From Mytilus californianus (taxonomy: Eukaryota): a DNA stretch of 64,000 nt. Below are positions 2,709 through 14,440 of the stretch, piece by piece. Position numbers and translations under genes: made by a program. The notes beneath the pieces were generated by a model. It was not told the DNA's origin. It worked only from the letters and a program-made list of their open reading frames with translations, and made no database searches. The stretch is taken from assembly GCF_021869535.1 (NCBI RefSeq), contig NW_026262690.1, positions 83,948,001 through 84,012,000 on the forward strand, given 5' to 3'. How positions within the stretch are numbered: the stretch's first letter is position 1; each line of letters opens with the position of its first letter.

Positions 2709-3102
2709 TGTAACACAATTGTGTTCCATACGATAATCATCAGGAAGTAACTACATACAGCAAAACCGAGACGATTACATGTAACCTTTAGACACTTAAT
2801 AACAATCTGTACGAATATTATTGACATATATCCTGCAGCCACTAAATGACCATGTCTACTGTGAAATAACATGTATCCGTCAGGGGTTAATTGCATAGTT
2901 TGACAATTAACCACAGACTAGTATTACTCCACAACCAGACTACTACGTAACCGGCCTACAGCTATGGACCGTTTGTATGGACCACTAGACTATATAAGAT
3001 CTCTCATTTTGGACTTCAAGACACAATTCGATCACACCAGAATTCGTCAGATCTCGGCCAGTGTCTCAGTGAAAAACATTTATTTGAACTTTTAATCGCT
3101 CT
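2709..3102 (+). repeat. LTR copy 1, 3'-truncated (394 of 464 bp); keeps TATA (2991-2997) but lacks AATAAA
   Basis: Matches 3703-4096 by eye; breaks off at ...TTTAATCGCTCT and joins env-tail sequence. Confidence 0.95.
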
Positions 3103-3103
3103 A

Positions 3104-3702
3104 AATGCCACGAACGATGGGTACCAAATGGTGACAACGCAAATGGTTGGGACAGAAGTACCTGATTCCAGAGAGAAGATTCCCTCTGCACCATTACTCA
3201 AAGACGATGCAAGACCGAAGACCGATGCTACCAGTCTCTTGAGAAAGATGTACCCAGAGCTAGATACGTCGACTACTTCGTAAAAGGACTGGATTGTAAA
3301 CCATACAACGTAGACGACCGAATCCACTAGCAGAAGACGAACCGTGTAAATAATTTTAAAAGTGACCCTATGAACTGTGTAAATAGAATTGTATAAACAT
3401 TTGTTCCTACCCAGTATTGAGGAACAACTTACTATGATGGTGATGGAAATAAAACATGAACTATGTATACCGAAATATTGAACTTATGATTAGAATGAAC
3501 TATGTGTAAATATATCCAGCTATTAGACTTGATGAATGTGATGAACTTATTATATCATGATATTGGACTCGTAGAACTTTATAAACTTTAGATATGTGGT
3601 GATGGTTACCGGAAACCTTACAATAAACTATTAGAATAACCTACAGGAAGAAAAATACCGTATTTTATTGAACTTTCGTTCTATTTTGGAGGGAGGGCAT
3701 TA
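3104..3702 (+). repeat. Duplicate of env C-terminal tail + 3' UTR + PPT (copy of 12039-12639)
   Basis: Near-identical to 12039-12639. Differences seen: TCG vs TCC (3271 vs 12207) and TTGTTCCTACCC vs TTGCGTTCTTACCC (2-bp indel plus substitution). Confidence 0.95.
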
Positions 3703-4166
3703 TGTAACACAATTGTGTTCCATACGATAATCATCAGGAAGTAACTACATACAGCAAAACCGAGACGATTACATGTAACCTTTAGACACTTAATAACAAT
3801 CTGTACGAATATTATTGACATATATCCTGCAGCCACTAAATGACCATGTCTACTGTGAAATAACATGTATCCGTCAGGGGTTAATTGCATAGTTTGACAA
3901 TTAACCACAGACTAGTATTACTCCACAACCAGACTACTACGTAACCGGCCTACAGCTATGGACCGTTTGTATGGACCACTAGACTATATAAGATCTCTCA
4001 TTTTGGACTTCAAGACACAATTCGATCACACCAGAATTCGTCAGATCTCGGCCAGTGTCTCAGTGAAAAACATTTATTTGAACTTTTAATCGCTCTTTGA
4101 ATACTTGTAAATTAAGCAATAAATTCTAATTGACAAGTATTAGTTAACTTAATTGACTTCGCAACA
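3703..4166 (+). repeat. LTR copy 2 (full 464 bp; functional 5' LTR)
   Basis: TGTAACA...GCAACA; TATATAA at 3985-3991; AATAAA at 4118-4123; no differences from 12640-13103 seen by eye. Confidence 0.97.
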
Positions 4167-4176
4167 TAAGTCAAAT

Positions 4177-4185
4177 TGGTGCCGT
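4177..4185 (+). promoter_or_regulatory. Primer-binding-site-like sequence TGGTGCCGT
   Basis: TGG start 10 nt after the LTR end; 9-nt complementarity to the typical metazoan tRNA-His 3' end (8 nt to tRNA-Phe). Confidence 0.6.
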
Positions 4186-4239
4186 TCAGACCAAGGATCA
4201 ACCAGGACTTCTAACCACTATACGATAGAAAGGAACCAC

Positions 4240-4245
4240 GTAAGT
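4240..4245 (+). promoter_or_regulatory. Putative major splice donor (CAC|GTAAGT) in the leader, upstream of the gag ATG
   Basis: Consensus GTAAGT between PBS and gag start, the usual retroviral position. Confidence 0.65.
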
Positions 4246-4275: not shown

Positions 4276-5430
4276 ATGGATAACCAAGATACTTCTATGT
4301 CAGCACAAAAAGTAGAATTAGCTTTCAATGGTGTCGCGAACGAACTTCATGGGTTAAGGGAAGTAGTTACTATTCAAGGCGATGTAGCCGCCGAACTAAA
4401 AGGGTTAAAATCAGCCATTTGTTCTCAAAACGTAGTTCAAGGAATAACGCCTTTTGAAGGTAATACGAAAGATTTTAAAGCCTGGATTAAGTCAATTGAA
4501 AAATATGCTTTACTTTTTAATGATAGGGATCGAATTAAGGAAATAGCTTTTCAAACATGTAAAGGGGCTTGTTCAGATTACATACAAAGGTATTTAAGAG
4601 ACCATCGGGATACCACTTGGGAACAATTAAAAAAAGAATTAACTTCAAGGTTTGGAGAAATTACGGACCCTCAACATGCGTCAACTCTTTTGAGACAATT
4701 AAAACAAAAAGGGGACGAGTCTGTTCAAATTTATGCAGAAAATTTATTGAATTTGGCAAATGAGGCATATTCAGATTTAGATGGAAATAATGAAGCTATA
4801 GAAAGGGAACTCGTAGGCATTTTTATAGATGGTTTGGCTCATTCTTATTTAAAAATGAAATTAATGAGAGAAAACCCAGCTACTTTTTCTTTGGCAGTTA
4901 AAAGTGCAATGACTGAACAAAATTTGAGAAAAAGATTTACTTTAAGAACGGAAAGGGTAGACGAACCAAGGTATAAAACAATAAGACCAATGACATTAAC
5001 TAGACCACGACGGACTGAACCTTTGAACTCTCATGAACCAATGGAAATTGATCATTATCGTGATGCAAAACGTTGTTATTCTTGTGGTAAAGTAGGTCAT
5101 GTATCACGTGATTGTCGTTCTGGGGGAAATTTGAGACAAATTAATGCCGTAGAAATGCAAACATATCACGGAAATTCGGGTAGAAACAGGGAAATTAATT
5201 GTTATTCTTGTGGTAAGGTAGGACATATAGCACGAGATTGTCGTTCTAGGGGAACATATAGACAAGTAAATGCAGTTGAAACGCAACAATATCAAGGGAA
5301 TTCGGGAAGAAATAATGAGATAATTTGTTATCAGTGTAATCAACGGGGACATATTAGGCCAAATTGCCCAAATAGAAAACCTAGGACTGTTAACATGGTA
5401 GAAAACTGGGGTGTATATCAGGAAAACTAA
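4276..5430 (+). CDS. gag: Gag (capsid-like region plus three CCHC zinc knuckles)
   Basis: First ATG at 4276 within ORF 4153-5430; retrotransposon-gag-like core (TWEQLKKELTSRF), PMEID motif, three CX2CX4HX4C knuckles. Confidence 0.93.
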   Translation: MDNQDTSMSAQKVELAFNGVANELHGLREVVTIQGDVAAELKGLKSAICSQNVVQGITPFEGNTKDFKAWIKSIEKYALLFNDRDRIKEIAFQTCKGACSDYIQRYLRDHRDTTWEQLKKELTSRFGEITDPQHASTLLRQLKQKGDESVQIYAENLLNLANEAYSDLDGNNEAIERELVGIFIDGLAHSYLKMKLMRENPATFSLAVKSAMTEQNLRKRFTLRTERVDEPRYKTIRPMTLTRPRRTEPLNSHEPMEIDHYRDAKRCYSCGKVGHVSRDCRSGGNLRQINAVEMQTYHGNSGRNREINCYSCGKVGHIARDCRSRGTYRQVNAVETQQYQGNSGRNNEIICYQCNQRGHIRPNCPNRKPRTVNMVENWGVYQEN

Positions 5431-8400
5431 AGCGCTCTTGTCACGTTGAAGCCGGTGATAAGAGTAAAATTGAAAAGAAATTACCTACTTATTCTATAAA
5501 TGTTGCAGGAGCTCCAAATTCAACTTTAATCAAAATTCAAAATCAAAGATATAGAGCTCTCGTAGATTCAGGCGCTAGTGTTTCTTTGATACACAAAAGA
5601 ATTTTTGAAACTTTGAGGGATAAACCAAAATTACTAAAGAAAACGGCTAACTTACAGTCCGTAAATGGGGGGTCTTTACATGTAGAAGGTTGTGCAAACC
5701 TTACATTTAAAATAGGTAGTACAAAAGTTACTCAATTATTTTATGTTGTTAGAGACATGAACAGAAATGTTATTTTAGGAAAAGATTGGTTAGTACAAAA
5801 TGGAGTTAGGTTATATTTTGATTTAGGATGTTTAAGAATTCAAAAAAATTATGTTCCATTAGAAGAAGATATTAATGTGGCTTCAATTGTAAGATTAACC
5901 GTAAATGCCGTATTAAAACCACAAACAATTAATGTTTGTCCCGTAGGCCTTAAGAACAATCCAAGTTTTGGAAGTACTAAATTGTTAGAAATCTCACCTG
6001 TAGCTTCAGGGTATGTTAGTACAGAACCAGGCTTAATGATAAGTAATACGGTGGTTAATTTTAATAAAAATAGGAAGTTTCCTTTGATGATTGTAAATAA
6101 CACAAACAAATCAATTAGGTTAAGAAGAGGTTGTGTAGTAGGTAAGGCTTCTCATTTAGAAGAAATAAATTTAGTCAATGTTAATCAATCACAAGAAACT
6201 TCGGAACTCAAAAAGTTAGATGAGTCTGAAATAAGTGTACCACAAGAATTTAAAAAGGATATACTTAGAATGTTAAGGGATAATGAAGATATTTTTGCAA
6301 CTTCAGACAAAGATTTGGGGTGCACTGATACAGTGCAAATGACTATTGATACCGGGGATCATCCACCTATCAGATTAAAACCCTATAGGGCCCCTCTCAA
6401 TCAGAGAAAAATAATAGATAAGGCTATTGAGGAATTATTAGAGGCTAATATTATTAGGAAATCTAGGTCGGCTTGGGCTGCGCCTATTATTATCGTTTCT
6501 AAAAAGGATAAAACATCAAGGATGTGCGTGGACTATCGCAGCCTGAACGCAGCCAGTAAAATTTATTCCTTTCCGTTGCCCCTGATTGATGACTTGCTTG
6601 CTTCAGTAGGTAAAGCCAAAGTAATGACATCACTTGATTTAAAGTCAGGATATTATCAGGTAAAGGTCAAAGAGTCGGATAAGGAAAAGACTGCTTTTGT
6701 ATGTCACAAGGGATTATTTGAGTTCAATGTATTGCCATTTGGTCTCGCCTCAGGGCCCAGTTTATTTAGTGAATTAGTTACAGAGGTACTACAAGGGTTA
6801 GAACATTTTTCAACTGCTTACATAGATGACATTTTGATATTTTCCGAAACAGTGGAAGAACATTTAGGCCACATACAACAAGTTTTTGATAGATTAAGAC
6901 AACACAAACTAAAATTAAAATTGAAAAAATGTAATTTTATGCAAGATGAAACTAATTACTTAGGCTTTATAATAAGTAAAGATGGACTAAAACCGGATCC
7001 TGAAAAGGTTAAGGCCATTCAAGGCATGAAAGCTCCCTCGAATGTCAGGGAAGTTAGAGGATTAATAGGTTGTTTGAGTTATTATCGCAGATTTGTACCT
7101 TCATTTTCAAAAATTGCGGAGCCTATAGTTGCCTTAACTAGGAAAAACAAGGTTTTTGATTGGACCAACACTTGTCAAGTTGCTTTTGAAAAATTAAGGG
7201 GTGAATTAGTGAAAGTTCCCTTATTGGCATATCCAGATTTGAATAAACCATATGTGCTTTACACGGACGCTAGTGATAATTGTGTAGGTGCTTGTTTAAC
7301 GCAATTACAAGCCAGCCCAATAGAGGGTGAAAATGAAGTTGAAAGACCAATTTACTTCCTATCTCATAAATTGAGTGATACGCAAACACGTTGGTCAACC
7401 ATTGAAAAAGAAGCCTTTGCGATTCATTATGCCTTACAAAAATTGAATCATTATTTGTATAATGCTGAATTTGTGATAAAAACAGATCACAAACCTTTGA
7501 AATACATTCTGGAATCACCAATGCAAAATAAGAAAATTCAACTGTGGGCATTGAACATAACGGGTTATAACTGTACTATTCAGTATATTCCAGGGCCCCA
7601 AAACGTGTGTGCAGATTTTATGTCTAGATTACCTTCAGATGAAAAACGAAACGAAAATCCAGATCCGTATCCGGATATTAGTGACAATACTTACGAAATT
7701 AATGTGATTAATTCAAATAGATTTCATTTTTCTGATTATGCAAATAATGATAAATTAGTTGAAGATATTCCAGAAAAAGAAAATTTTCAGTTTGAAGAAT
7801 TTGATATGTCAATCGAACAAATGAAAGACAAAACATTACGTGAGTTAAAGGAACAACTTGTAAGCGATAAGGTACCCGAGGCAGTGCAAAACAAGTACAT
7901 CATAATAGATGACATACTTTATTACATTTCAAATGTAGATAATGATCCTATTATAAGGTTGTACATACCATCTCATATAAAACAAGCAGTTGTAGAACAA
8001 TATCATGATAAGAATGGGCACATGGGCATTGACAAAACATTTGATTCCATTCGTCAAAAATATTTTTGGCCAAACATGTTTAAGGAATTGTATAATTATG
8101 TCACTACTTGTGTACCTTGTCAATCACGCAATTTACAAAAGGTTAGAGCGCCAATTCAGGAAACAAAAATTCCGCCTTATCCTTTTTGTCATGTAGGGGT
8201 AGATTTGAGTGGACCGTATCCAACTACCATGTCAGGTAACAGGTACATTATAGGATTTATCGATTTATACTCAGGGTGGCCAGAAGCTTTTAGTGTCGCA
8301 ACAAAAAGCACTGACAATGTTGCACATCTTTTGATTGAAGAAATTACTTCAAGGCATTCTGGGATTCAAATTCTAACAAGTGATAACGGAGGGGAAAACT

Positions 8401-9524
8401 GTTCTAAGGCTATGGAGGAAGTTTGTAAGGAACTTAATATAAAGCATATTAAAACTTCATTCTATCACCCTCAGGGTAATGCTAAAATAGAAAGATTTCA
8501 TAGAACATTACATGATGTTTTGTCAAAATTAATAGAAGATCATTCCACAACTTGGGATTTATACTTGAACCAAGCTTTAGCAGCAATTAGATTCAATATC
8601 AATGAGTCCACCCAACTTTCACCTTTTTATGCATTATATAACAGGGATCCAGTTTTACCTTTAGATAACATTTTACAGCCTAGGAGAAAATACAATGGGG
8701 AAGAATATCATAAAATTGCCTTGCAACAACAACATAAATCATTTATGTTGGTTCATAAAACCATGAAAAAATCTAAGCAGAAACAAGCTAAGTACGCAAA
8801 CAAACATAGCAAAGATATAAGGTTTGAGGTAGGAAACCCAGTTTTTTATAAAAATCATAGAAGGGCAAGCAAACTTTCAAAAAAATGGACTCCGTACTAT
8901 AGGATTATAGAACAAACTTCACCTGTTAGTTTTATTTTAAAAAATCAGTTAGATGGGACAACCACAAAGGCTCATGCTGAACAAATTCGTTTGGCTAAGT
9001 TAGATTGGGAAATTCCTAACAACAATCAAGGTAGGACATTACGTAAAGCTGCATATGTAGTTCCCATTGAGTCACAATCAGAAGACTCCTCTGATGATGA
9101 AAGCATAGATTCAGACACTCCGTTAAATCAAATTGCAAAAAGATATAAAAAAGAAAGGGAAAATTCTGATGAAGAAGATGATATACCATTAATGGAGTTA
9201 TCTAAAAAATTAAGGGGGAAGAAAATTTTCTCAGAACAAAATAATGTCAATAATAGTGAAATAGAAAGTGATGATCAAATCATAAAAGAAGAAGTAGAAA
9301 ATTCGTCTACTAATTCTGAAGTTTCTGACATTGATGATAAAATGTCCAGCAGTCACTCTTCGCCTGTTGAATCTGAAATTTCCGACATGGAAGATAACAT
9401 GTCTGTAAACCGGGTTAAAATAAAAAATAATCGGAAACCAACTGATAATGGGGCTAACGAAACAAAATTGGTAACCAAGGAACATGTACAAAATTTAGTA
9501 AGGGCTTTAATAGGTATTATGTAG
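5394..9524 (+). CDS. pol: Pol polyprotein: aspartic protease, RT, RNase H, integrase with GPY/F-like module and acidic tail
   Basis: Frame open from 5394 with LVDSGASVS protease motif upstream of the tracked ORF start; RT (RMCVDYR, LPFGL, YIDD); RNase H (YTDAS, EKEAFA, TDHKPL); IN HHCC (HDKNGH...CVPC) and DDE core. Confidence 0.97.
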   Translation, partial: HGRKLGCISGKLKRSCHVEAGDKSKIEKKLPTYSINVAGAPNSTLIKIQNQRYRALVDSGASVSLIHKRIFETLRDKPKLLKKTANLQSVNGGSLHVEGCANLTFKIGSTKVTQLFYVVRDMNRNVILGKDWLVQNGVRLYFDLGCLRIQKNYVPLEEDINVASIVRLTVNAVLKPQTINVCPVGLKNNPSFGSTKLLEISPVASGYVSTEPGLMISNTVVNFNKNRKFPLMIVNNTNKSIRLRRGCVVGKASHLEEINLVNVNQSQETSELKKLDESEISVPQEFKKDILRMLRDNEDIFATSDKDLGCTDTVQMTIDTGDHPPIRLKPYRAPLNQRKIIDKAIEELLEANIIRKSRSAWAAPIIIVSKKDKTSRMCVDYRSLNAASKIYSFPLPLIDDLLASVGKAKVMTSLDLKSGYYQVKVKESDKEKTAFVCHKGLFEFNVLPFGLASGPSLFSELVTEVLQGLEHFSTAYIDDILIFSETVEEHLGHIQQVFDRLRQHKLKLKLKKCNFMQDETNYLGFIISKDGLKPDPEKVKAIQGMKAPSNVREVRGLIGCLSYYRRFVPSFSKIAEPIVALTRKNKVFDWTNTCQVAFEKLRGELVKVPLLAYPDLNKPYVLYTDASDNCVGACLTQLQASPIEGENEVERPIYFLSHKLSDTQTRWSTIEKEAFAIHYALQKLNHYLYNAEFVIKTDHKPLKYILESPMQNKKIQLWALNITGYNCTIQYIPGPQNVCADFMSRLPSDEKRNENPDPYPDISDNTYEINVINSNRFHFSDYANNDKLVEDIPEKENFQFEEFDMSIEQMKDKTLRELKEQLVSDKVPEAVQNKYIIIDDILYYISNVDNDPIIRLYIPSHIKQAVVEQYHDKNGHMGIDKTFDSIRQKYFWPNMFKELYNYVTTCVPCQSRNLQKVRAPIQETKIPPYPFCHVGVDLSGPYPTTMSGNRYIIGFIDLYSGWPEAFSVATKSTDNVAHLLIEEITSRHSGIQILTSDNGGENCSKAMEEVCKELNIKHIKTSFYHPQGNAKIERFHRTLHDVLSKLIEDHSTTWDLYLNQALAAIRFNINESTQLSPFYALYNRDPVLPLDNILQPRRKYNGEEYHKIALQQQHKSFMLVHKTMKKSKQKQAKYANKHSKDIRFEVGNPVFYKNHRRASKLSKKWTPYYRIIEQTSPVSFILKNQLDGTTTKAHAEQIRLAKLDWEIPNNNQGRTLRKAAYVVPIESQSEDSSDDESIDSDTPLNQIAKRYKKERENSDEEDDIPLMELSKKLRGKKIFSEQNNVNNSEIESDDQIIKEEVENSSTNSEVSDIDDKMSSSHSSPVESEISDMEDNMSVNRVKIKNNRKPTDNGANETKLVTKEHVQNLVRALIGIM
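5421..5464 (+). promoter_or_regulatory. -1 programmed ribosomal frameshift signal: G GAA AAC slippery site plus downstream stem-loop
   Basis: Heptamer 5421-5427 directly before the gag stop; pol is in the -1 frame and open from 5394; 7-nt spacer, then a 10-bp stem CTCTTGTCAC (5435-5444) / GTGATAAGAG (5455-5464) with one G-U pair. Confidence 0.8.
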
Positions 9525-9628
9525 GTATCAATTGGCTTTATAGGTCGTAAGAAGGATGCAAATCATTTAAAAATTTCTAAAACTTATAAACTATGTAATA
9601 AAACTAGTATTTATTCTCATTTTACAGA

Positions 9629-10132
9629 ATGGCAGACAATGAAGAAAGCTTTGCCCAGCTAGAATCCCTCTATTTGTGGAAACTATTACCTGATAATTTA
9701 TGGTGGGACATATATGTAAAATTTAAGATCAATTATTTCCGGGAAATACTAGATAGAAAGAGAAGGGAACCTCTATTTAAGGAATTCCACGCTATACAGA
9801 AGCTTATTAACCTGTCGGATCCAATTATAATTGACAATTATTGTGGTTTACCCACAAAATTCGCAGAAATAATTGGACGCCGGAAACAATTTGCCGAAAT
9901 ACATAACTTATCCTATCAGGAGCATCTTAGGAAGTGGACGGTGGAGAACTTCAAAGCCATTGGATGGTTAAAACGATCCAATCGCTTTGGGGTTTACCAC
10001 CAAGAAGTGATTCTAAACAAGGCAAGGAAAATGCACCGGATACGCATTTTCGATCTGATCATTAAATTTGAGACTGTGAAGGAAAACAACCAAACATTTT
10101 ATTCAGGACTATCATATGAATTCCAAAATTGA
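9629..10132 (+). CDS. Accessory ORF of unknown function (167 aa, basic, no evident TM segment) between pol and env
   Basis: Uninterrupted ORF with agaATGG start, 1 nt after a strong acceptor (TTATTCTCATTTTACAG, AG at 9626-9627); lies inside an otherwise intact element. Confidence 0.75.
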   Translation: MADNEESFAQLESLYLWKLLPDNLWWDIYVKFKINYFREILDRKRREPLFKEFHAIQKLINLSDPIIIDNYCGLPTKFAEIIGRRKQFAEIHNLSYQEHLRKWTVENFKAIGWLKRSNRFGVYHQEVILNKARKMHRIRIFDLIIKFETVKENNQTFYSGLSYEFQN

Positions 10133-10202
10133 TAAAGGCCAGATAAATAAAATATATTATGATAATTTATATATGTATCATTATTTTTAGGGAGAACCAG
10201 TG

Positions 10203-12218
10203 ATGAAGTGGTGGTGGTTCTCACTTATTCTTTTTGGCTTAACCAGCCAATTCATTGTCAAGGAAAATGTCATGTTTCAAAAAATTAAGGAAATATCAAC
10301 CACAAGGTCAAATTGGCTCATTACTTTTGTCGTAGACTTGGATCCTTTTGAATTATTTCTTAATAAAATAGAACAAGACTTGGGCAAGGCTTTTCTCGCT
10401 ACACAAAAAGTTCACACAATTTCTATGTTTTACACCCCAGAAAAAAAACACATTTTGGCTACTATCTTAAGTCTACAAAGGGAGGTTGAAGGATTAAATC
10501 GGACAAAAGATTATTTACAATCACAATTCAATGATTACCAATCTTTATATTACGACGAAACGGCAAAGTTTAAAACTAAACGTAGCTTATTTCCTATTAT
10601 AGGCAAAGCATTAAGTTTTTTATTTGGTACTGTATCAGACAGCGACCTGTCAAAAATTCGAAGAAATATCAAAACTTTGGCACAAAATCAAGATGCAATT
10701 CGTCATATTGTTCAAGATGGGTTAACTATCTTAAACACTACACAAACACATGTTTCTGAAAATAGACACAAGGTTAATGAGTTGATTGAAAGTGTTCAAG
10801 ATCTTGGAAATAGACTTCAAACTTTTGCTACGGATTTAGAAAAACAAATTGAAGTTATGGGAAGTTATTTACAAGCTTATTTGCATATGGACATGATAAT
10901 AGGTGAAATAAAGGACCTTATGAATATAGCCGGGGATTATTTAAACCATTTGCAATTACAACTAAACATGTTGTCCTTAGGACACATGTCACCCAGTCTT
11001 ATATCACCCGGTAATTTACGAGTATTATTGACTGACATAAAACGACGACTACCGGCGACATTAAAGATACCTGGTGACGAAGTTAAAGATATTTGGAATT
11101 TTTATAAATTTTTGACCTGTAGTACAGTTTTGGACGAAAACAAAATAATCATTATCATTACGTTACCATTACTAGATATAAGAGACACTTATGAAATTTA
11201 TAAGATTCACAACTTGCCTGTTCCTACTACGATAACTGATAAACAATCTGACTCGAGCAATATGGTTGCTCAGTATGAATTAGAAGCAGAAGTTATTGCT
11301 GCAAACCAAGAAAAAACTAAATATATGCTGCTAAATACCAATGAAATTGACAAGTGTTCCAATCCTTTAGTTAATTTTTGTGAAATTAAAAGTCCAGTTT
11401 ATCCAGTTAATTTAAGTAAATTATGTATCATAGCCTTATTTGCCAATAAAGAAAATTGGAAAACAAGATGTACAGTGAAAGTACGACCAAACACAATTTT
11501 GCCTATGGCAACTTATTTGACCGATAGTATGTGGGCAGTTACAACCATTAATGAATTTAGAATCACTATTAGATGTGATGACAATACAAACATGTTGACG
11601 GATCAGATAATTAATCCTCCTACCACTATAATTAATTTAAAGCGAACTTGTACCGCTACGAGTGATCATTTGACCTTATTACCTACTTATCAAATGGAAA
11701 GTACATTTTTAACAGAAAAAACGTTCGAAAGATTCTTAAATACCTTTCAAGTACTGAATACAAGTTTATGGGAACCCTTTCATGCTGCTTTGCCAAATTT
11801 TACAAAGCTTGAACTACCAAGAGAACTAAAGGCGATTAAACAAATTCCTATGAACGCTTTGATTGAAAAACTTAGAAATTTAAGGGGAATTGAAAACGAT
11901 TTTGAATTTCCAAATTGGGGAGTAGGTTTATCCCTGGGTTTGGGTGCGATATTCATTGGAATAGCTATATTTTTGTACTGTAAGTTTTTTAGAAACAAAT
12001 CTTGGTTAGCCAAAAAGAAAGGTGTGAGTTCGGGTTCTAATGCCACGAACGATGGGTACCAAATGGTGACAACGCAAATGGTTGGGACAGAAGTACCTGA
12101 TTCCAGAGAGAAGATTCCCTCTGCACCATTACTCAAAGACGATGCAAGACCGAAGACCGATGCTACCAGTCTCTTGAGAAAGATGTACCCAGAGCTAGAT
12201 ACGTCCACTACTTCGTAA
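10203..12218 (+). CDS. env: Envelope glycoprotein, class I fusion protein of the F type (baculovirus F / gypsy Env-like)
   Basis: Signal peptide MKWWWFSLILFGLTSQ; basic cleavage site KFKTKR then fusion-peptide-like SLFPIIGKALSFLFG; heptad-rich and Cys-rich ectodomain; N-glycosylation sequons; C-terminal TM and cytoplasmic tail; acceptor TTATTTTTAG at 10181-10190. Confidence 0.9.
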   Translation: MKWWWFSLILFGLTSQFIVKENVMFQKIKEISTTRSNWLITFVVDLDPFELFLNKIEQDLGKAFLATQKVHTISMFYTPEKKHILATILSLQREVEGLNRTKDYLQSQFNDYQSLYYDETAKFKTKRSLFPIIGKALSFLFGTVSDSDLSKIRRNIKTLAQNQDAIRHIVQDGLTILNTTQTHVSENRHKVNELIESVQDLGNRLQTFATDLEKQIEVMGSYLQAYLHMDMIIGEIKDLMNIAGDYLNHLQLQLNMLSLGHMSPSLISPGNLRVLLTDIKRRLPATLKIPGDEVKDIWNFYKFLTCSTVLDENKIIIIITLPLLDIRDTYEIYKIHNLPVPTTITDKQSDSSNMVAQYELEAEVIAANQEKTKYMLLNTNEIDKCSNPLVNFCEIKSPVYPVNLSKLCIIALFANKENWKTRCTVKVRPNTILPMATYLTDSMWAVTTINEFRITIRCDDNTNMLTDQIINPPTTIINLKRTCTATSDHLTLLPTYQMESTFLTEKTFERFLNTFQVLNTSLWEPFHAALPNFTKLELPRELKAIKQIPMNALIEKLRNLRGIENDFEFPNWGVGLSLGLGAIFIGIAIFLYCKFFRNKSWLAKKKGVSSGSNATNDGYQMVTTQMVGTEVPDSREKIPSAPLLKDDARPKTDATSLLRKMYPELDTSTTS

Positions 12219-12639: not shown

Positions 12640-13103
12640 TGTAACACAATTGTGTTCCATACGATAATCATCAGGAAGTAACTACATACAGCAAAACCGA
12701 GACGATTACATGTAACCTTTAGACACTTAATAACAATCTGTACGAATATTATTGACATATATCCTGCAGCCACTAAATGACCATGTCTACTGTGAAATAA
12801 CATGTATCCGTCAGGGGTTAATTGCATAGTTTGACAATTAACCACAGACTAGTATTACTCCACAACCAGACTACTACGTAACCGGCCTACAGCTATGGAC
12901 CGTTTGTATGGACCACTAGACTATATAAGATCTCTCATTTTGGACTTCAAGACACAATTCGATCACACCAGAATTCGTCAGATCTCGGCCAGTGTCTCAG
13001 TGAAAAACATTTATTTGAACTTTTAATCGCTCTTTGAATACTTGTAAATTAAGCAATAAATTCTAATTGACAAGTATTAGTTAACTTAATTGACTTCGCA
13101 ACA
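12640..13103 (+). repeat. LTR copy 3 (3' LTR, 464 bp)
   Basis: Same sequence as 3703-4166; AATAAA at 13055-13060; followed by TSD TCAT. Confidence 0.97.
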
Positions 13104-14440
13104 TCATGACATTCTTTGCTTAAAGCTTGAAATTTATGGATTTAGTGAGGCTACTGTTAGTTTTTTCAAGTCATACCTGAATAACAGAAAACAGCAGGTA
13201 AACATTTGTAATGTTTACTCTAAACAACAACATGTAAAATTTGGTGTACCCCAAGGTTCTATACTTGGTCCTCTATTGTTTGTGCTATTTATAAACGACC
13301 TTCCCTTATGCATTGAAAATTGTGAAACAGACCTATATGCTGATGACACCACTCTTCAGAAATCAGGGAAAAACATAGAAAATATACATGATGATGTTCA
13401 AGAAGATTTATACAGGGTTGAAGAGTGGTGCAAAATGAATAGCATGTTCATTAATGCAAACAAAACAAAATGTTTAGTTACTGGAACAAAGCAGAAACTA
13501 TCAATTCAGACTTATCAACCAAACTTGATAATAAATTCAAAAGTATTACAAAATTCTTCATGTGAAAAATTATTAGGTGTTAAAATTGACAGCACACTTA
13601 GCTGGAGAAATCAAATTGACCAAGTTTGTGCTAATATATCATCCAGAATATACCTTCTTTCTAAAATAAAGAAATTTTTAGATATAAATGCAAGGAAAAC
13701 ATATTACAATGGGTATATTCTGCCCCTGATTGACTACTGCTGTATTATTTGGGGTGAATGTAAAAATGAAGGGATAACAAGAATTTTAAAACTCCAAAAA
13801 AGGGCAGCAAGATTAATTCTAGATGCAGATCCTTTATCCCCCTCAGCCCCCTTATTTAAAGAACTTGGGTGGATGACAGTTGACAATAGAATCAAATACC
13901 ACAAATATTTACTTCTATATAAATGTATGCGTATGGAAGCTCCAATGTACCTAGTTCAAAGTTTAAACTGAAATCAGATAATAATCCTTACTCCTTGAGA
14001 GGTGTCACTCAAGGTAATATGATAGTTCCTAAACCAAAAGCTGAGCTATTTAAGAAATCTTTTGTTTATTCTGGATCAGTGTTATGGAATGGACTACCAC
14101 ACAAAATGCGTAAAGCTCAAAACGCTTATACTTTTAAACAAAGTATCAAGAAGTACTTAACACAGTCCTGATAAGATTATGTTTTCTACAATGTATTTGT
14201 ATATTCTTTTATTTTTATTTTTATTTGATTTTTTGACTACATGTGCATCTTGAACAGCCTTATATCTTATCATGTTAGTAATATTACATTGAACTAATTG
14301 ACTGTAAATTAACTATGTGTAAATATCTGTTTTTGATTGTATTGTAATTTGTATGTGAGGGCCTCAGGGAAGATTAGTCTATTGTAACTAACTGAGTTTA
14401 CCCTCTTTAAATAAAGAATTTATTATTATTATTATTATTA
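13104..14440 (+). mobile_element. Same LINE, right part: rest of RT, 3' UTR, AATAAA and (TTA)n tail
   Basis: Removing the LTR element and one TCAT restores DLVDH-DILCLKLEIYG in frame; GVPQGSILGP and YADD motifs; one frameshift near 13953; AATAAA at 14410-14415 and TTA repeats to 14440. Confidence 0.92.

Follow-up and report, generated by a model that had tools for sequence, protein, structure and literature searches.

The reading frame orfX, which lies between pol and env in a Ty3/gypsy element of the mussel Mytilus californianus, is almost certainly a real gene: it codes for a protein, is the fourth gene of the element and is under purifying selection. It was studied in a window (the whole stretch of DNA that was analysed) of 64,000 nucleotides. 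The preliminary description had proposed a dedicated accessory gene under selection, and this proposal is well supported by the intact copies, the dN/dS ratios, the substitution pattern and the placement of the splice acceptor. The product is tentatively read as a Rev/CERV-like regulator of the element RNAs that retain introns.

The host element

The element is a young, env-bearing Ty3/gypsy element which has been spreading recently. It is inserted in a LINE reverse-transcriptase ORF (2241-2708 in the window), which it interrupts and which resumes in frame from 13104 onward, beyond the element. A 4-bp target duplication (2705-2708 and 13104-13107) flanks the outer ends at 2709 and 13103. Since the duplication is found at these outer ends, the rearranged form, with its extra 5' block, seems to have been inserted in one event. 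The block opens with a partial LTR; a short microhomology marks its junction with a duplicated env 3' end and polypurine tract, after which comes the full 5' LTR. The components are:

2709..3702, + strand, extra 5' block (partial LTR, copy of the env 3' end, polypurine tract)
3703..4166, + strand, 5' LTR, identical in sequence to the 3' LTR
4177..4194, + strand, primer binding site, which we take to be of the tRNA-His type
4276..5430, + strand, gag, 384 aa, with a capsid domain and three CCHC knuckles
5433..9524, + strand, pol, with a protease motif, RT, RNase H and integrase, in the -1 frame relative to gag
9629..10132, + strand, orfX, accessory ORF of 167 aa, basic and aromatic-rich, between pol and the F-type env
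10203..12218, + strand, env, 671 aa, F-type, with a furin-like site at residue 124
12640..13103, + strand, 3' LTR, identical to the 5' LTR

The domains of pol follow the gypsy order (PR-RT-RH-IN), between LTRs accompanied by a primer binding site and a target duplication. The pol frame is already open upstream of the gag stop, and the 3' end of gag (5415-5430) is a run resembling a -1 frameshift site, to be regarded as putative. The gag tails of two of the sister families described below (B and C) have the same FQGN/YQGN-type ending. The N-terminal half of env scores 35.7 bits against Baculo_F (cut-off 24.1), whereas the full-length protein of the window gives no Baculo_F match; the env proteins of families B and D also score above the cut-off.

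The 'ancient errantiviruses' of Chary and Hayashi (PMC13524379), as far as the accessible parts of that paper show, have in common with this element the gag-pol-env order, the gypsy domain order, an F-type env and many near-identical copies. Supplementary file 1 of the same source holds five Mytilus rows, and of the two rows compared one, of the F-type, has the same 12-nt primer binding site and LTRs of ~465 bp. Because of this agreement, the element family has probably already been catalogued. The source treats three ORFs, whereas the element of the window has a fourth, orfX; its accessible text does not discuss extra ORFs or splicing.

The orfX product

The ORF between pol and env is present as the preliminary description had it, and so are the strong start context (A at -3 and G at +4, both in the DNA and after the predicted splice) and the richness in tryptophan and aromatic residues (5 Trp; 15.6% aromatic, vs 8-9% in pol and env). 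The pI of the protein is 9.4, and it is 9.0-9.5 in the four full-length alleles. All three basic clusters reported earlier are there, although the diverged alleles do not preserve the exact letters of RKRREP and GRRKQ. The highest 19-residue hydropathy is only 0.68, which confirms that the protein has no transmembrane stretch; across alleles this maximum is 0.66-1.01, so that the single transmembrane helix with polybasic tail of FAST or sORF2-like proteins is not found in orfX. The N-terminus is acidic and has no hydrophobic core, a composition that speaks against a signal peptide.

The earlier remark that the family is not recognisable was confirmed by searches of Pfam, PHROGs and PDB sequences. 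Pfam gave sub-threshold scores only (Pox_polyA_pol_N with E 0.009-0.4 in three of four alleles, below the cut-off), PHROGs nothing under E 0.06 and the PDB sequences no match at E<=10. Homologue searches returned 3, 6 and 4 matches; all those carrying an organism name are Mytilus gene models, and the others are ENA proteins without a name. A profile search over 1.84 billion representatives gave six proteins, five of which belong to the orfX family; one of the six, P0007, was rejected as a repetitive false match. Loci related to orfX were not found in viral or metagenome contigs.

The structure model has a pLDDT of 44 and consists of helices followed by a four-strand meander. Fold searches with it gave no viral match at E<=0.001, and the best PDB match has a Z of 6.2 over 47 residues; since the confidence of the model is low, the absence of a trustworthy fold match does not show that the fold is new. 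The best ESM Atlas score is 0.83, with low recognition, for a giant-virus hypothetical protein and ankyrin/F-box clusters, which is a lead only. An F-box reading, suggested by an LPxEL-like stretch, was rejected: against a profile of 28 host F-boxes orfX scores -1.0 to -3.5 bits, vs 33-65 for held-out host F-boxes, and 36-131 of 300 shuffles score as high as orfX. In other alleles, an RNA stem is predicted for the same stretch as well. The winged-helix look of the segment containing the only GW dipeptide, noticed by eye, is not supported by Pfam, PDB-sequence or structure searches.

Copies and purifying selection

A genome search with orfX returned at least 54 matches (13 dispersed, 22 tandem and 19 diverged, all these counts being lower bounds). 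The 13 dispersed copies, which include that of the window and are 98-100% identical, are all free of stops, and the differences among them comprise 10 synonymous and 8 non-synonymous changes and no stop. The tandem copies form an array (G000:C24:26546986-26578418, L014-L030) of 22 units of ~1452 bp, each made of the end of pol, orfX and the start of env; 14 of the 22 orfX copies contain a stop. All four env-bearing families have left fragments in the surrounding region, G000:C24:26.21-26.59 Mb. These nearly all share one strand, the exception being one minus-strand env piece, and we presume that the region is comparable to a flamenco-like single-strand piRNA cluster.

Fifteen stretches were taken around diverged matches. 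In 11 of them orfX is 40-77% identical and adjoins a closely related env, with pol upstream in 7; in a twelfth, L042, the match precedes a more distant env. L043, L044 and L045 share a 1.5-kb segment (~96% identical) which contains a broken, diverged orfX and the start of env without the rest of the element, and which is apparently carried by another repeat.

The preliminary description had named loss of conservation, or a dN/dS near 1, as what would speak against the gene. Instead, dN/dS is 0.05-0.26 against 10 of the 11 diverged copies (it is not computable, because of saturation, in one), and all bootstrap upper bounds are below 1. Codon windows under 60% nucleotide identity were excluded, so that some copies contributed only 36-84 codons, and the comparisons are not independent tests since diverged and young copies share ancestry. 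The cleanest pair, the window allele and the intact, 74%-identical L031, gives over 163 codons a dN of 0.16 and a dS of 1.35, i.e., a dN/dS of 0.12 (95% bootstrap 0.06-0.19). The frame is kept despite length differences between full-length alleles. The earlier impression of an intact and selected gene thus holds.

Splice signals and expression

The acceptor that the preliminary description had placed immediately before the ATG is present (AG at 9626-9627, with pyrimidines at 10 of the 12 upstream positions), and it is kept in L031, L036, L037 and L038. The signals that matter for orfX and env are:

4240..4245, + strand, predicted major splice donor, GTAAGT between the primer binding site and gag
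9521..9526, + strand, weaker donor-like site (GTAGG) at the end of pol, in frame with orfX if used
9611..9627, + strand, predicted splice acceptor of orfX, pyrimidine tract and CAG, one base before the ATG
10179..10190, + strand, predicted env splice acceptor

A GTAAG follows the primer binding site in the three families examined (A, B and C), and the leader (3985-4239) contains no ATG. When the acceptor is defined as a pyrimidine tract followed by YAG, it ends 0-1 nt upstream of the ATG at 6 of the 7 accessory ORF starts, vs 37 of 2642 ATGs of the window (1.4%). A join of the leader to orfX (4239->9628) is therefore likely, as judged from these signals. One raw RNA run gave 29 reads, with none over 9760-10339 and none across a joint, a coverage too thin to judge splicing; three contig sets, the nature of which is uncertain, read through the orfX acceptor without splicing.

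The site at 9521 opens another reading, in which orfX would be a spliced C-terminal extension of Pol or of its integrase (e.g., a targeting domain), added by removal of a 107-nt intron (9521-9627). The single base between acceptor and ATG puts this donor in frame with orfX, GTAGG is kept in L031, L036, L037 and L038, and the M. edulis gene model P0010, which is a prediction only, makes the join. However, the site is weaker than the donor at 4240, families B and D have no in-frame equivalent, and the orfX alleles examined keep their own ATG and start context. In addition, two copies of related elements (L046 and L055) have lost the accessory ORF and yet have an intact pol. A Pol extension is therefore quite improbable.

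A predicted RNA hairpin inside orfX

Two predicted stems are found in the coding sequence:

9815..9884, + strand, second, weaker predicted stem, only the inner part of which recurs, in some alleles
9940..10001, + strand, predicted 26-bp RNA hairpin, the strongest local fold of the element

A fold scan of the element in 119 segments, with 25 shuffles for each, placed the two best in orfX (z -7.1 and -5.2). The others have z -2.1 or weaker, save one at -4.6 in the tail of pol. The latter segment (9260-9410) encodes the acidic, Ser-rich tail, and the z is -2.4 for 9230-9430. The stretch 9850-10110 folds better than all of 200 shuffles, and the stem of the hairpin coincides with the most conserved orfX peptide. 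Rfam has no match over the whole element.

The hairpin is conserved. In 15 aligned copies (L039, broken at that site, was left out), a 15-pair consensus is paired in 91% of 225 cells, a value equalled by none of 500 shuffles, and slid controls reach 25-48%. The consensus stem has 15 two-sided changes, and none of 500 shuffles has as many, whereas the number of pairs with a two-sided change is unexceptional (matched in 148 of 500 shuffles); this covariation is partly circular, the structure having been derived from the same alignment, and an A-U/U-A swap probably arose only once. The hairpin is not a mere by-product of the peptide, since in 11 of the 15 copies the fold surpasses those of at least 197 of 200 synonymous resamplings drawn with the codon use of the element. 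L041, L043, L044 and L045 do not beat this null, and five copies fail when the codon use of orfX itself is applied. A different stem, near the start of the ORF, folds in L031, L036, L037, L038 and L039 and not in the window allele.

Could the region be kept for its RNA structure only, as a cis element or small-RNA precursor, with an incidental ORF? The predicted hairpins do coincide with conserved peptide blocks. However, the acceptor, the ATG and the frame are all kept, and synonymous sites are near saturation while dN stays at 0.12-0.28, which is the opposite of what pure RNA constraint would produce. This reading is hardly credible.

Divergence of the orfX cassette

Nucleotide identity to older copies is ~90-98% in pol and env and 65-85% over roughly 9640-10190. 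Of the 10 copies for which dS could be computed, 7 have an orfX value at least 3 times the env value, one has a value 1.5 times as high, and in two the values for orfX and env are the same. At four-fold sites, 44-57% differ between the window and four copies, vs 3-30% in blocks of pol and env; some pairs of old copies, e.g., L036-L038, show less of this excess or none. The GC3 of the cassette is 0.41, vs 0.26-0.30. Hypermutation was rejected as the source of the high dS, the third-position spectrum not being skewed to one type. Over 58 residues the window allele shares 95% identity with an M. edulis model, and that of L031 is 93-95% identical to M. coruscus models. The simplest reading of the sequence comparison, which suggests it without imposing it, is that old alleles have been exchanged between homogenised flanks.

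Such a pattern of diverged alleles in homogenised flanks fits frequency-dependent selection, as would be expected if OrfX acted as a cofactor of the particle or of Env, or excluded superinfection, with alleles that mark off interference groups between the subfamilies. In the families examined, orfX is found only beside env. However, the absence of a transmembrane stretch and of a signal-like N-terminus sets it apart from the sORF2 fusogen, as described in the available part of 10.1101/2025.03.14.642691, and a role of this kind appears improbable.

The accessory slot in sister families

Three sister families (B, C and D), drawn from 18 stretches around weaker env matches, have pol 52-56% and env 39-42% identical to those of the window. 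Their slot between pol and env is occupied as follows:

Family B, one accessory ORF, 158 aa
Family C, one accessory ORF, 153 aa
Family D, three accessory ORFs, 163, 171 and 87 aa

An accessory slot between pol and env is thus general: all four families examined carry one to three genes there. In family C the acceptor stands 7 nt upstream of the ATG. The proteins of B, C, D1 and D2 constitute one family (hhalign 96%), and no kinship of orfX to it was detected in three profile comparisons with shallow profiles (hhalign 0.2-0.6%). The members of this second family (153-171 aa; L052:5345-6698, L049:3087-3563 and L059:8630-9091) have homologues only among Mytilus models, together with one ENA protein. 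In family D the gene is tandemly duplicated, in addition to the 87-aa third ORF. The model of the family D protein is predicted to be all-helical (pLDDT 53) and has no trustworthy fold match; the ESM Atlas returns generic helical repeats, with low recognition.

The two copies without an accessory ORF result from deletions. L046 (G000:C132:99320600-99330500) is a member of family C in which gag, pol and env are intact and the two LTRs identical, and from which the ORF has been cleanly deleted at a 4-nt microhomology. In L055, where pol is intact, the deletion extends into env. Each junction is single-copy, which indicates that the ORF-less forms did not visibly spread.

Proposed role of OrfX

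Three RNAs can be envisaged: the unspliced RNA, for gag-pol and packaging, a leader-to-orfX RNA and a leader-to-env RNA. OrfX would probably be made from an RNA of its own with a single splice, for which the predicted join is 4239->9628. Because the hairpin lies between the orfX and env acceptors, it would be carried by the genomic and orfX RNAs, i.e., by both RNAs that retain an unused acceptor, and be absent from the env mRNA. OrfX may help intron-retaining element RNA to escape splicing or nuclear retention, probably by acting through the conserved predicted hairpin in its own coding sequence. Protein and RNA site would then be contained in one 0.55-kb cassette, and could be exchanged jointly by recombination, which would explain why divergence between alleles is so much greater here than in pol and env.

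The predicted splice pattern, the placement of the hairpin, the basic and soluble product and the precedent of CERV are the reasons for favouring, with reserve, this Rev/CERV-like reading. The preliminary description had mentioned a Rev/Rex-like export factor. This idea draws indirect support from the conserved hairpin predicted in intron-retaining RNAs. The Rev motifs are missing: the four alleles have at most 3-5 Arg per 17 residues, hence no Arg-rich RNA-binding motif, and no match to a strict leucine-rich NES (loose NES matches number 3-8 per allele, which carries no information). Comparable folds are absent from the ORFs of families B and C (weakest-energy windows at z -3.0 and -1.0), which also speaks against a regulator; in family D strong folds are predicted near the third ORF. 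So free a replacement is not what one would readily expect of a function on which export depends, and L046, a single copy, has no accessory ORF in spite of its intact gag, pol and env. Even if OrfX does not bind it, the hairpin could function in packaging or in the control of splicing, be used by a host export factor, or give rise to small RNAs.

In lentiviruses, vif and vpr sit between pol and env, and accessory antagonists often differ and duplicate between lineages. OrfX might accordingly be a host-defence antagonist, either a Vif-like degradation recruiter or a suppressor of piRNA/siRNA silencing, the hairpin then having a separate role in cis. Besides the matching position, this would account for a protein divergence 3-6 times that of pol and env in most copies, for a slot filled by different and duplicated genes in sister families, and for deeply diverged alleles common to other Mytilus species, which fit balancing selection. 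However, there is no sign of positive selection, the dN/dS of orfX being equal to that of pol and env in a whole-gene comparison rather than in site models; the F-box test is negative, a single GW dipeptide is present, and the overlap of the hairpin with the most conserved peptide is left as a coincidence. An antagonist is the main rival reading and nearly as probable as the Rev/CERV-like regulator.

A wider version of the Rev/CERV-like reading is doubtful but deserves to be stated. OrfX would be a self-contained module in which the same 500 bases encode a new RNA-binding protein and contain the RNA that it targets; its ancient alleles would be traded between lineages and replaceable by unrelated cassettes, providing each lineage with a private control of genome export. 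Such elements would be the invertebrate counterparts of complex retroviruses.

Comparison with known systems and significance

The closest precedent is CERV, the spliced product of the C. elegans Ty3/gypsy element Cer1, which is needed for the export of the genomic RNA and has no recognised RNA-binding motif (PMC10309623, accessible part). OrfX resembles it as a novel protein of a gypsy element, from a (predicted) spliced mRNA and without a recognised RNA-binding motif. CERV, however, has 517 aa, an N-terminal part shared with Gag, a Cys loop and an ORF in the position of env, whereas orfX has 167 aa and no coding exon shared with gag, and is present in addition to env; this comparison is made by description (PMC10309623). 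The absence of a Gag-shared N-terminus in orfX follows from the predicted donor being upstream of the gag ATG.

Like HIV Rev/RRE and HTLV Rex/RxRE, orfX combines a small basic protein, a (predicted) spliced RNA and a structure predicted in intron-retaining RNAs (PMC4588558, in the part available). It differs from Rev and Rex by the missing Arg-rich motif and strict NES, by a hairpin of ~60 nt, compared to about 500 nt for typical export elements according to the same part of that source, and by the position of this hairpin inside the accessory gene itself, whereas those of Rev and Rex are located within env or the LTR. Overlap between an export element and a coding region has precedent (PMC4588558).

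Other gypsy and LTR elements carry extra genes. The sORF1 and sORF2 of the Drosophila MDG1 group are likewise selected accessory ORFs of gypsy elements; as stated in the accessible part of 10.1101/2025.03.14.642691, sORF1 is nuclear and sORF2 has a transmembrane stretch, and, in contrast with orfX, both are upstream of gag, unspliced and found in elements without env. In LTR elements of bdelloid rotifers the extra gene is a third ORF (ORF3s, PMC5408684, part seen), and an internal env promoter has been reported for Oikopleura Tor3b/4b (PMC4402516, part seen). The mussel elements differ from those of rotifers and Oikopleura in having one to three extra genes besides env, each with its own acceptor.

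A survey of the openly accessible literature, by titles and abstract beginnings, gave no paper on an accessory gene between pol and env in mollusc gypsy elements. LTR elements are already known to carry accessory ORFs quite generally, which limits the surprise. What sets the mussel elements apart is the combination of one to three acceptor-led genes besides env, a slot whose content can be swapped, and a conserved predicted hairpin overlapped by a protein gene.

Invertebrate env-bearing gypsy elements are described as simple analogues of retroviruses, with three genes. The four mussel families examined add one to three genes between pol and env, almost every one led by an acceptor, a layout otherwise typical of complex retroviruses, and the slot is occupied by two protein families without known relatives or fold. 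The orfX gene and the hairpin are both small and directly testable. If OrfX counters host defence, it would give a handle on mollusc transposon immunity; if it regulates export, it would be the second independent Rev-like invention in Ty3/gypsy elements, after CERV.
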